Origin: Octopus vulgaris
Lineage: Eukaryota
Direction: 5' to 3'
DNA: 64,000 bases
Assembly: GCA_951406725.2 (NCBI GenBank)
Contig: OX597832.1
Coordinates: 34,534,001-34,598,000, forward strand
Under the pieces are notes generated by a model. That model did not search any database. It saw only the letters and a list, made by a program, of their open reading frames with translations, and was not told where the DNA came from. Below, piece after piece: positions 9,547 through 13,405 of this stretch. How positions within the stretch are numbered: the first letter of the stretch is position 1; every line of letters starts with the position of its first letter. Made by a program: the position numbers and the translations under genes.

Positions 9547-12542
9547 TCATGGAGGCTTTCTAACAACTGCTATTTGGTGCATGAGAGAGTTCGATGCAGC
9601 TGCCCTCATCTGCCCCTCCTGCCGTGAAGTTGGTTCATCTGGGACACCTGACAGGAAGAGATCCAGCTTCATTTTAAAGACATCTGTATCCACCCCATGC
9701 AGGTCTCTCAGGTTCTTCGGGAGGATATTGAAGAGCTGTGGGCCTCGGAAGCCCAGGCTATCACAGAATCTTGTCCTACATCTTGATGGCAGGTTTGGAG
9801 TCCTAGGCACCACGCAGTGGCGCCCAGTTCTGGCATTTGCGTAACTCTCGATGCCAAAGTTCAGGACACTTCCCTCCAGGATCTTCCAGATGTATATTAT
9901 GGCATATCTTTCCCGCCTACGCTCCAGGGAATATAATTTTAATCTCTTGAGTCTTTCCCAGTAGCTTACATTCTGCATAGAGGCTATCTTCTTTGTGTAG
10001 CTTCGTTGGATCGCCTCAAGTTCTGTGATCAACTTGACACTGGATGGTGACCATAGCTGAGAGCAATAGTCAAAGTGGCTTAGGACAAGTGTCTTCCAGA
10101 GGACCATCATGGTTTCTTGTTCTCTTGTTCTAAAGGTTCTAAGAATCCATCCAGCCAGCCGTCTACATTTCATTGTCAGTTTAGCAACATGTACATGAAA
10201 GGTCGCGTCATCACTCATGTGAATACCCAGGTCACGCACTGATTGTGCCTCTGGGATTGCAATCCCTCCGGGTCCAGTGTATTCATTGGGTATTGCATTC
10301 AGTTTTGCATGCTGATAGTATAAAGCTTGAAACTTTCCAGCATTGAACTGCATGCTATTCTTTTCAGCCCACTTGTATATTTCGTCCAGCTCACATTGCA
10401 GGTGTTTAGTGTCCTCAGGGTTCTGTATTGCCTGTGAAACTTTTGTATCATCTGCATAACTTGTGATCGTGGCTCTCTGCGTGGCTGAGGGCATGTCTGA
10501 GAGGGCCATTATGAACAGTAGTGGTCCCAGAACAGTGCCCTGCGGAACACCGCTCACTATTTGTGTGTTAATGGAGGTGGCCCCATTGGCTACTACCACC
10601 TGACTTCTATCCTTCAGAAAGTCATGAAGCCATTCTCCCAGTTTTCCAACTATGTTGAGATCACGCAGTTTGTGACATATCATTCCATGATCGACTTTAT
10701 CAAAGGCCTTTGCAAAGTCGAGATATATCACTTCCACATTTGAGTGGTTGAGCAGCCGTTTCAGCACCCAGTCATAGTGTTGTAGGAGCTGAGTTAAACA
10801 GCTTCTCCTGGTCGGAAACCATGTTGGGTGTCGGGCAGCAAGTCATTCTCTTCAAGGAAGGTGATCAGCTTCCTTCTGACTATTCGTTCCATGACCTTGC
10901 TGATGTGTGAGGTCAGAGAGATAGGTCTATAGTTCTTGGCTTCCGCTCTGCTACCTCCTTTATGAATGGGGCATATTTTACCTTCCTTCAGTTTTCCTGG
11001 AAGTTTGCCAGCTGCAAGGAAGCTCTGAAAGAGGAACTGCAGTGGTCTTGCTAGGACTCTCTTACATGCTTTTAGGAGGATTGCCGGGAATCCATCGGGG
11101 CCAGTAGCTGAGTCTGTTTTCATTTCATCTATAGCCTTCGTTACATCGTCTTCCTTTATATCGATGTAATCTATCGTCGCCGCCTCTGATTTTATATCTG
11201 CAGTGGTAAAAAAGTCAGTTGGATTGGTGATTTGGAGATGCCCAAGGGGTGGAGTGAAAACACTCTTGAATTGCTCATTCAGTATTTCACTTACCCTCAT
11301 TGGTTTTCCTGTAAGTGTGCCATCCTTTTCGAGGAGTGGCCCTATTCTACAGTGCACTGTAGCTGTTTCTTTGGCATACCTGTAGAAAGCTCTGGGGTTA
11401 GTTTTTATGTTTTCTATAGCCCAGGCTTCTTTGTCTGCTCTTTCTTTTTCATGGGAGAGTTGCAGACATTTTTCGATTTCCAACAGTTTTATTTTTAGGC
11501 GGGACTTTTCACTGCTTTCAATCTGTTTGTTTAGGCGATTTGAAAATTTCGTACGCCGTCTCATTAAAATTTTCCTCTCTCTGGGGATTTTGTTCTTGTG
11601 TACAGTGGCCTTTCTCTCTGGGACACATTTGTAGCATATGGCTTGCATTACAGACATGAATTGTTGAAGTTTCACGTCGATGTCTGGCGAGGAGAGACAT
11701 TTAGGCCAGTTTTGTTTGAGGATCTCTTTCTCAATTTGTTTCCAGTTTGCCTTATGGTAGTTCAAGCTGGAAAGATTTTGAGGGTTTCTTATAGGCTGCA
11801 TGTCCGTGCTCTCTTTTGGCCCGTACATGGTCAGCTCTATCATGTTGTGATCCGAGAGTAGTGTCGGTGTCACTTTCACATTATGGATGAGATCCATGTC
11901 ATTTGTGAAGCAGAGATCCAGTGTGTTACCTGCCCTGGTTGGTTGGAGTATTACCTGCTCCATGTACAGGGTGTTGATGAGGTTCAGGAGGGACCTCGCC
12001 TGTCCTCGTTCACATCTTGTCATTCCTGGGAGAGAAAGGCCCTCGGGCCATCTGACATTGGGCAGATTGAAGTCTCCCATAAGAAGCACACCTATGTGTT
12101 GTTCTAATGTGGTTAGAATTTCTTCTATTTTTATAAGGCAGTCTTCAAACTTGCCCACATGGCTTGGGGCATCTGGAGGGCGATATGTAGCACACACAAC
12201 TACATCAAGTTGCTTAATATGTACAATTAGTGTGTCACACACCGAGTTTGAGTATGACAAGAGGACCTGGGGTGTGAGGTCCTCACGGATGTACATAGCA
12301 ACACCTCCATGACTCCTTTCTTTCCTGTCGGTCCGTAGTACAGCATACTGTGGTATGTGTAACTCCGCATCTGCTATGTCCGGTTTCAGGTGCGTTTCTG
12401 TAAGTGCTATGCATATGGCTTGATTGCATGCAACAAAGTCTCTCAGGAACGGGATCTTTGTCCTGTTACTGAGTGTTTGCAGTCCTCTGATGTTCAGTAG
12501 GAGTATCGAGGTGAGGTGTACGTTGTTGCCGGCGGTGTCCAT
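9547..12542 (-). pseudogene. Family C ORF2 (APE + RT) with 1-bp deletion near 10807
   Basis: ORFs 10794..12650 and 9547..10767 together match the intact ORF at 54574..57570; cttctcctgg here versus cttctccctgg there. Confidence 0.93.
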
Positions 12543-13405
12543 CCTGTGTCTGTTTGCTGTGGTGGTCTGGTATATAGTGGGTAGTCCCACCTGCGGGCTT
12601 GGGTTTGATGAAGCCAGGTCAGCTGCTGTACAATCTTTTGTGCCATGCACAAAAAAGATTGTTGCTCAGCAGCTGCTCTTTCGACAACATCATGTTGGCT
12701 GTTTGTGGCGCGCACAACATCTGCGTACCTCCGCTTTGGGGCAGGTGGTGCGTGGTCCATCCCTTTTCTTTGTGTTGATGGTTTGTCCATCTGCCTCGTG
12801 TCTCTGTGGCAGGGTCCCCGATGTGCAAAGCGGCAGCCTGCACCTTCCTTTCCATGCCAGCAGGAACCTCTCAGGTAGAACATACACACCCGTGTGCGCT
12901 GTTTGGTTCCATCCTTTGCGGTTCCACTTCTATTTCTGGTTGTTTCACTCTTTGGTCCTGCTTGAGCTTTTTCTTTTCCTTTAGCTCTTCCAGTCCTTCT
13001 TTTAGTTCTTCTTCCTCCCTCTACCTCTTCACCGGGTTCTCCGTCTCCGTGGCCCTTGCTGCCGGTTGGAGAATTTGCACCTGGGTTCACTTCCCGGGCA
13101 GGTTTCTCATTCAAAACCTCCTCCCGGGCGTCCACCAGGTGGGGGTGACTTCTTTCATCGTCTCCATTCTTGCCATCTTTGCCCCGCTCGTTCTCAAAGA
13201 TGGCATCAAGTGCGCCAATGTGCGACCGTACAAGCGCATATGAGCGCACGAATTCCTGTCTCTTTCGCTCCATCTGAGCCGCCGTCCTCTTGTAGCCTCT
13301 GCTCTTCAGCGCAGCCGCAATCACCTCGCTAGGGCTATCTCCGCCGGCGCACTCCCATGCTCGTACGAATAAATCCAGCTCGTCACGTCTCCATGCTCTG
13401 GACAT
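12494..13405 (-). CDS. Family C ORF1, 303 aa (Myb/SANT-like trihelix + CCCH zinc finger)
   Basis: AWRRDELDLFVRAW...[48 protein letters not shown]...[23 protein letters not shown]. Confidence 0.9.
   Translation of the reverse strand: MSRAWRRDELDLFVRAWECAGGDSPSEVIAAALKSRGYKRTAAQMERKRQEFVRSYALVRSHIGALDAIFENERGKDGKNGDDERSHPHLVDAREEVLNEKPAREVNPGANSPTGSKGHGDGEPGEEVEGGRRTKRRTGRAKGKEKAQAGPKSETTRNRSGTAKDGTKQRTRVCMFYLRGSCWHGKEGAGCRFAHRGPCHRDTRQMDKPSTQRKGMDHAPPAPKRRYADVVRATNSQHDVVERAAAEQQSFLCMAQKIVQQLTWLHQTQARRWDYPLYTRPPQQTDTGWTPPATTYTSPRYSY

Follow-up and report, generated by a model that had tools for sequence, protein, structure and literature searches.

CR1-group elements of the Jockey superfamily are long interspersed nuclear elements (LINEs) whose first open reading frames (ORF1s) are classed as types I-V, with domains that are modular and exchanged (PMC4120745). 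In TRAS1 and SART1, exchanging the endonucleases shifted the site of insertion, and the ORF1 protein (ORF1p) has also been suggested to guide localization (PMC1919474). Targeting of microsatellites is thought to be driven by endonuclease cleavage (PMC3812793), and overlap between the 3′ tail and the target has been reported for CR1, L2 and RTE elements (PMC6007223). In Octopus vulgaris, the LINE groups that are young and active include CR1, with 13 families and 787 recent insertions (PMC13282606). Here, a stretch of 64,000 nucleotides from this species (contig OX597832.1, positions 34,534,001 to 34,598,000; referred to as the window) was analyzed, with emphasis on the open reading frame at 12494..13405 of the minus strand. 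This frame is the ORF1 of a CR1-like LINE encoding an apurinic/apyrimidinic endonuclease (APE) and a reverse transcriptase (RT). It combines a predicted Myb-like N-terminal domain with a CCCH zinc finger, an architecture that is real, conserved in an octopod LINE and, provisionally, newly described.

The window contains six LINE copies of three related families, designated A, B and C1-C4. Copy C1 is a near-full-length element on the minus strand, extending over about 9454-15233. Its ORF1 (12494..13405) is intact and open from ATG to stop over 303 residues. The downstream ORF2 (9547..12542, minus strand) starts at an ATG at 12542, giving a 49-nt overlap with ORF1, and encodes an N-terminal APE endonuclease followed by an RT (Pfam Exo_endo_phos_2, E = 6.5e-12, and RVT_1, E = 2.7e-30). 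A 1-nt frameshift near 10806 breaks the ORF2 frame in C1; the frame is open in copy C3, and the extra base is present in public contigs and other copies. The 3′ untranslated region (UTR; 9454..9546, minus strand) contains a pair of predicted stem-loops together with an (ATCA)n tail. The probable 5′ UTR (13406..15233, minus strand), the end of which is placed by a (TA)n junction, includes an AT-rich tandem array at 13464-14782; the corresponding region of family B (3647-4805) is an unrelated, CT-rich tandem array, which suggests promoter turnover. The CR1-group traits of 5′-truncated copies and of a 3′ stem-loop and short-repeat tail common with short interspersed nuclear elements (SINEs) were both found. 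The CR1 label itself follows from motifs that we take to be characteristic of that group, the ORF2 tree described below containing no named CR1, L2, Crack or Daphne references. In three DNA runs, summed contig depth at the start of ORF1 was less than one-tenth of that at the 3′ end of the element; this fits 5′ truncation and provides no copy number, and ORF1 divergence may contribute. A further run (X10), possibly of RNA, covered 28 of 30 bins with 13 records, which is not counted as a sign of expression. Rfam returned 0 matches across the 64-kb window.

Conservation within ORF1 was assessed by comparing families C and B. In the latter, an A-run near 5426-5432 divides ORF1 (4961-5897) between two frames, and the comparison spans that break. 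Identity was 29/68 in the Myb block, 14/26 in the finger and 20/42 in the C-terminal helix. The initial annotation had described these three blocks as the only conserved ones; all three are present in both families, and a fourth short motif, RPPQ..D.GW.P (12533..12568, minus strand; 8/16 identical), which overlaps the ORF2 start, is conserved as well. Third codon positions vary most (0.63, 0.54 and 0.67 in the Myb, finger and C-terminal blocks, respectively, versus 0.27-0.44 at the first two positions), as would be expected under purifying selection. The conserved C-terminal block (12602..12730, minus strand; YAD.VR...AAAEQ..FL.MA.KIV.QL.W.H) has the sequence pattern of an amphipathic helix, for which a trimer prediction scored 0.02 and gives no verdict either way. 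Between the Myb block and the finger lies a poorly conserved linker (12890..13189, minus strand) with an acidic half (residues 73-130) and a basic half (residues 131-172; 16 K/R versus 3 D/E).

A search with ORF1 among 1.84 billion representative proteins identified 31 at E<=1e-3. Alignment assigned 28 of these to the ORF1 family or fragments of it, including P0009; P0011, P0028 and P0029 matched via CCCH fingers only. Given these homologous matches, the ORF1 architecture is not the product of chance. All named homologues were from Octopus, either O. vulgaris or O. sinensis (6 named of 20 checked). P0009 is an O. sinensis lipin (LPIN3) gene model with a terminal piece 61% identical to the ORF1 linker, reflecting either exonization or a gene-model error. 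The PHD, RRM and esterase domains that the initial annotation had named as typical of CR1/L2 ORF1s were not found: along with CCHC and Tnp22, none was listed for the C or B ORF1 at Pfam E<=10, and none was in the set of 25 Pfam families displayed for 30 ORF1 members. Matches to LisH, PGA2 and ribosomal S8 were set aside as weak, and a match to Torus was set aside as overlapping the finger.

Residues 1-72 of ORF1 (13190..13405, minus strand) are predicted to adopt a Myb-like fold, in agreement with the likeness to Myb, SANT and trihelix domains first proposed for this region. AlphaFold2, supplied with a 22-row alignment, returned a confident four-helix model (predicted local distance difference test score (pLDDT), 85.5) with helices at residues 7-20, 25-35, 42-60 and 63-78. 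Comparison of this model with 48,161 chains using VIA-align gave LUX as the best match (Z = 7.8; 55 residues aligned with a root mean square deviation (rmsd) of 1.8), followed by RAD (7.6), ARR1 (7.5), GT-1 (7.5; 76 aligned, rmsd 7.5), TEAD4 (7.4), the SANT domain of DNAJC2 (7.2), Zeste (6.9), MiDAC (6.8), and Tbf1 and TRF1 (both 6.7). Ten of the top 12 rows are Myb, SANT, GARP, trihelix or TEA domains, some of these family labels being presumed, and two are chromatin complexes. The high-probability rows from Foldseek were TEAD4, the RAD Myb domain (probability 0.96, E = 0.65), GT-1 and PHR1. In Pfam, Myb_DNA-bind_4 is the family that most members match over the N-terminal block (7/30 ORF1 members, best E = 0.0017). 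Neighbors in the Atlas included Myb_DNA-bind_3/4 clusters at 0.78-0.83, at the level of a lead only, and the top three (0.84-0.87) were unnamed clusters.

A basic face is conserved on helix 3, which also carries the conserved E46 and E51; R40, R47, K48, K49 and R54 are conserved as well. R40, Q44, K48 and Y56 are kept in 18-19/20 rows, and all 20 rows have a net charge between 0 and +7. W5 (13/16) and W17 (15/18) are conserved; of the three spaced aromatic residues in the core of Myb domains, the one in helix 3 is replaced by K/R, F52 and Y56 lying close by. Where trihelix proteins presumably carry K-W-x-N-L in helix 3, the octopod ORF1 has K-K/R-x-E-F. The analogy with telobox Myb proteins drawn in the initial annotation is not supported: TRF1 and Tbf1 do not score above the GARP, RAD, GT-1, TEA and SANT domains (6.7 versus 7.2-7.8), and the helix 3 sequence QMERKRQEF contains no telobox motif, which we assume to be LKDKWRN-like.

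Several results weigh against a Myb-like assignment. The match of the C1 ORF1 to Pfam PF13837 (Myb_DNA-bind_4; E = 0.011, 16.6 bits) does not reach the gathering score of 27, Foldseek searches of PDB and BFVD returned nothing at E<=1e-3, and all VIA-align Z scores lie below 8, a level that the tool calls common. A sequence search of PDB with the N-terminal alignment A9 gave 0 matches at E<=10. Because no single Z reaches 8, the fold is argued from the consistency of the list of matches.

The single CCCH finger (12821..12886, minus strand) has the spacing C174-x7-C-x8-C-x3-H195, exactly as initially described, and its third Cys and His are invariant in 13 rows. A profile built from A2 matched Muscleblind fingers in PDB (top E = 0.001; best named, MBNL1, E = 0.009). 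Counting against the assignment, the C1 ORF1 scores 16.8 bits with Pfam zf-CCCH, short of the gathering score of 20.5; the tandem-finger protein P0028 clears it with 26.

With ORF2 as the query, 2,097 of the 8,000 proteins scored reached E<=1e-50. Identity was 58-88% for four of these, followed by a large group at ~40%, one cluster of which includes krill proteins; the closest named ORF2 was from Argonauta hians (58% identity). Marine relatives with ORF2s 35-43% identical to the octopod ORF2 carry a different ORF1. In P0161 and P0163 (521 residues), a helical region precedes a PHD (E = 0.015, weak), three CCCH-type fingers and a helix opening DFLE; both were tied to the ORF2 P0115 by membership of the same cluster and by contigs matching in length. 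The same layout lies immediately upstream of ORF2 in locus L001 (ORF2 35% identical; ORF1 at 958-2556), for which Pfam lists nothing, and in P0120 tandem CCCH fingers are fused to ORF2. The first finger of these relatives aligns with the octopod finger (HHalign 92%, E = 6e-7; hidden Markov model E = 1e-8). On this sequence evidence the finger, which the initial annotation had counted as part of what made the ORF1 unusual, is inherited from a wider ORF1 type, of which the octopod clade kept one finger. About residues 80-91 of P0161, just upstream of the helical/PHD region, form a motif ending NPGP that we take to be 2A-like (StopGo); no such motif occurs in the window elements.

An ORF2 tree was built by a quick method from 42 rows, comprising 36 of 120 listed ORF2 proteins, two window ORF2s and four loci. 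The six octopod-type rows form one clade (Shimodaira-Hasegawa-like approximate likelihood ratio test (SH-aLRT), 100) nested in a larger one (support, 98) to which P0115 and P0120 belong and L001 does not. The Myb profile had no match in 80 metagenome loci (a sample from 1/64 of the collection, largely distant) or among the retrieved non-octopod proteins, and a scan of viral contigs with ORF2 as the query gave no relative. Because the finger is homologous, the octopod clade is nested and the Myb profile finds no match in those loci and proteins, we infer that, in the octopod ORF1, the PHD and two of the fingers were lost and a Myb-like domain was acquired. The subgroup CR1_2, of type V, was set aside as the ancestral type, its members being from Aedes in the rows examined (PMC4120745).

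Some observations argue against a replacement of this kind. The tree has no bootstrap and a long branch at L001, and only two relatives have a readable N-terminus. Moreover, a faint likeness was seen between helices 2-3 and the pre-PHD helices of the relatives (HHalign 3.7%, E = 0.011), a value equalled by 12/300 shuffles, such that the Myb-like domain might instead descend from the pre-PHD helical region. The model of the L001 N-terminus is poor (pLDDT 45; best fold-search Z, 4.0).

The genomic setting of the LINE copies was then considered. The 3′ ends of 6/6 copies reach (TA)n, 51-65 nt from the conserved tail motif, as compared with a TA background of 8.5% of positions outside clusters and 16% overall, which bears out the TA adjacency claimed initially; the six copies fall in two clusters, such that the count is not independent and covers this window only. 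Of the five visible 5′ ends, four adjoin TA. The family A 3′ fragment (1..673, plus strand) is cut by the window edge and runs into 2.4 kb of (TA)n. The family B element (3080..8906, plus strand; ORF2 open to 8839) has (TA)n on both sides. C1 meets an unstranded (TA)n tract at its 3′ junction (9279..9453), and a second such tract (15234..16448) separates its 5′ end from the 3′ end of C2 (16448..17948, minus strand), a 5′-truncated copy whose 5′ flank, the exception, is not TA. C3 (54482..57903, minus strand), truncated inside the CCCH codons with ORF2 open, lies in a G-interrupted TA array present on both sides. C4 (59105..62313, plus strand) is 5′-truncated, with a 24-bp duplication at its 5′ side, an internal deletion of about 256 bp and TA on both sides. 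The 5′ truncations of C3 and C4 fall within about 50 bp of each other, inside the CCCH codons or shortly ahead of them, where the element sequence is GTGTGTATGT. A simple fold-back origin of this pair was rejected, as 13/1416 and 53/1506 bases differ.

The G interruptions of the TA array hold one strand polarity over 53284-63079, across C3, C4 and a SINE (G:C of 62:2 and 18:3 around C3, and 26:2 on to 63079), which suggests insertion into a pre-existing TA array. The 1.2-kb TA tract at 57905-59104 meets only the 5′ ends of C3 and C4, which lie head to head, and hence is not a tail. Families A, B and C are 64-78% alike; all three end in TA, and their tails end AT or TA beside the tract. At 8606-9275, an inverted copy of the family B 3′ end spans (TA)46; TATA has replaced numerous short stretches of this copy, and 48/56 substitutions lead to A or T. 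It is likely a fold-back or consensus artifact, and its remnant at 9000-9275, which also adjoins TA, was kept out of the 6/6 count for that reason.

Six short elements carry the two predicted 3′ stem-loops of the LINE, namely a SINE-like element at 62398..62812 (plus strand), with TA-like repeat on both sides, and copies at 35027-35422, 47335-47677 and about 36860, 37315 and 38068. Compensatory change was found in 3/12 pairs of the stem-loops, with changes in stem 2, and the folding z-score was significant only for the SINE copy. Elsewhere in the window, a degraded single-ORF LINE without this ORF1, presumably of the Dong/R4 clade, lies at 29553-33584 (minus strand) with (TTA/TAT)n = (TAA)n tracts on both sides. 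A GIY-YIG fragment at 50223-50753 (minus strand) is likely from a Penelope-like element. Palindromes are present at 45482-47000, 45047-45206 and 50967-51242; the largest, which measures 1.5 kb at 99.5% and has 31-bp repeats at its center, is either a foldback-like element or an assembly artifact.

The reading that we favor, with roughly an even chance of being correct, is that ORF2 and pairing of the tail select (TA)n and that the Myb-like domain of ORF1 stands in for the PHD and holds the element loosely to DNA or chromatin. ORF1p likely packages the element RNA. Here, the CCCH finger and the basic linker would bind the RNA, the C-terminal helix would multimerize the protein, and the mildly basic Myb-like domain may have taken over the chromatin contact of the PHD through DNA binding of low specificity. 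ORF2 would recognize the two 3′ stem-loops, its APE would nick at TpA steps within (TA)n, and the terminal AT/TA bases of the tail would prime reverse transcription by pairing with the strand that was nicked. The choice of TA is assigned to ORF2 because endonuclease swaps move the target, because tail-target pairing has been reported and because the tails here end AT or TA. That a Dong/R4-like LINE without a Myb ORF1 sits in (TAA)n within the same window gives further support to targeting by ORF2.

The best-surviving alternative, which is the model of the initial annotation and in our estimation an unlikely one, is that the recognition helix of the Myb-like domain allows ORF1p itself to read (TA)n and to bridge the ribonucleoprotein (RNP) to the repeat. 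It is retained because a role of ORF1p in localization has been suggested, as proposed for SART1, HeT-A and R1 (PMC1919474, PMC4700185), and Myb domains assist targeting in elements with a restriction-like endonuclease (RLE; PMC13708176). TA follows the 3′ end of 6/6 LINEs and of 2/6 tail-sharing short elements (one-sided Fisher, 0.03), a contrast that would fit a cis-acting ORF1p, most of the short copies looking older than the LINE copies. L001, with its PHD-type ORF1, is not in TA, and (TA)6 was found within 600 nt in 0/11 distant LINE loci, a weak control from other hosts. The conserved basic face of helix 3 points the same way. Against direct reading, the fold matches show no preferential telobox likeness, and in APE LINEs the determinant is known to be the endonuclease (PMC1919474). 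In addition, gain of the Myb-like domain and the TA habit are confounded within a single clade. The helix-3 sequence K-K/R-x-E-F, in place of the trihelix pattern, also speaks against it. The bolder proposal that the swap of PHD for Myb made this LINE (TA)n-seeking, which would make it the first APE-LINE ORF1 with a sequence-reading domain for double-stranded DNA, steering both RNP and SINEs, is likewise improbable.

A role for the Myb/SANT-like domain other than binding of genomic DNA in the RNP, whether as a protein-interaction or RNA module or through binding to the element's own 5′ UTR repeats, appears quite doubtful. The SANT domains of DNAJC2 and MiDAC tie with the DNA-binding matches, the charge is only mildly basic with E46 and E51 conserved on helix 3, and C1 has an AT-rich 5′ UTR array; the conserved R40, R47, K48, K49 and R54, however, suit contact with nucleic acid, and the lack of BLAST similarity between the B and C 5′ UTRs is contrary to a shared operator. 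Finally, it is rather improbable that there is no active TA targeting, the copies instead accumulating in or generating TA arrays (as proposed for passive accumulation of Drosophila Waldo; PMC3812793), or being joined at TA by long-read assembly in a window chosen as a hot spot: the two clusters, the C2 5′ flank and the artifact-like remnant at 9000-9275 would be accommodated, but the uniform G polarity on both sides of C3 and to 63079, the tract adjoining 5′ ends only, the shared TA ends of three diverged families and the differences between C3 and C4 all stand against it.

In summary, two ORF1 architectures absent from the ORF1 surveys searched are described, Myb plus CCCH and its likely ancestor, PHD plus tandem CCCH, which together provide a natural domain-swap pair for the question of whether ORF1p helps to choose the LINE insertion site. 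Given the activity of CR1 in octopus, this LINE family may shape TA-rich parts of the genome. Should ORF1p prove to read DNA sequence, it would provide retrotransposon-based gene insertion with a separable module for targeting. No description of a Myb or CCCH LINE ORF1, of a (TA)n-targeting CR1 or of the helical, PHD and tandem CCCH type was found in the literature searched, a scope that lay outside Repbase and Dfam, which probably list octopus CR1 families, and outside subscription journals. In the accessible text, the words Myb, SANT and CCCH have 0 occurrences in PMC4120745, Myb and CCCH have 0 in PMC5203782 and PMC11203168, and Myb has 0 in PMC13343379 and PMC9115989.

Compared with described systems, the octopod element resembles CR1-group LINEs of the Jockey superfamily in its APE and RT ORF2, upstream ORF1, 5′ truncation and short-repeat 3′ tail, and differs from their ORF1 types in that RRM, CCHC, PHD, Tnp22 and esterase are all missing (PMC4120745). 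Waldo, Mino, Kibi, Koshi and Dong likewise have copies embedded in simple repeats; their targets are ACAY, AC, TC, TTC and TAA, the endonuclease is credited, and the accessible text includes no (TA)n LINE and does not mention CR1 (PMC3812793). With trihelix, GARP, RAD-like and SANT proteins such as GT-1 and Zeste, the ORF1 shares a predicted bundle of three helices, the third of them long, plus a fourth helix, as well as W5, W17 and the pattern R-T-x-x-Q-x-x-K...Y; it differs in lying below the Pfam cut-off, at 9-22% identity, with K/R and E at the helix-3 aromatic and Asn positions. R2/RLE elements with Myb, and the ORF1p of SART1 and HeT-A, provide precedents for Myb-assisted target recognition and ORF1p-guided localization, respectively, although in RLE elements the Myb domain sits in the RT polyprotein. 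The ORF1p of SART1 and HeT-A are gag-like zinc-knuckle proteins rather than Myb proteins. There is also a likeness to the marine CR1-like PHD plus tandem CCCH elements (P0161/P0115, L001, P0120 and P0028), which share the 35-43% ORF2 identity, a first finger of the form C..F..G.C.HG..G..C...HP and a C-terminal helix opening FL. By contrast with their ORF1 of about 525 residues and three fingers, the octopod ORF1 has about 300 residues, no PHD, one finger and a Myb-like N-terminus.

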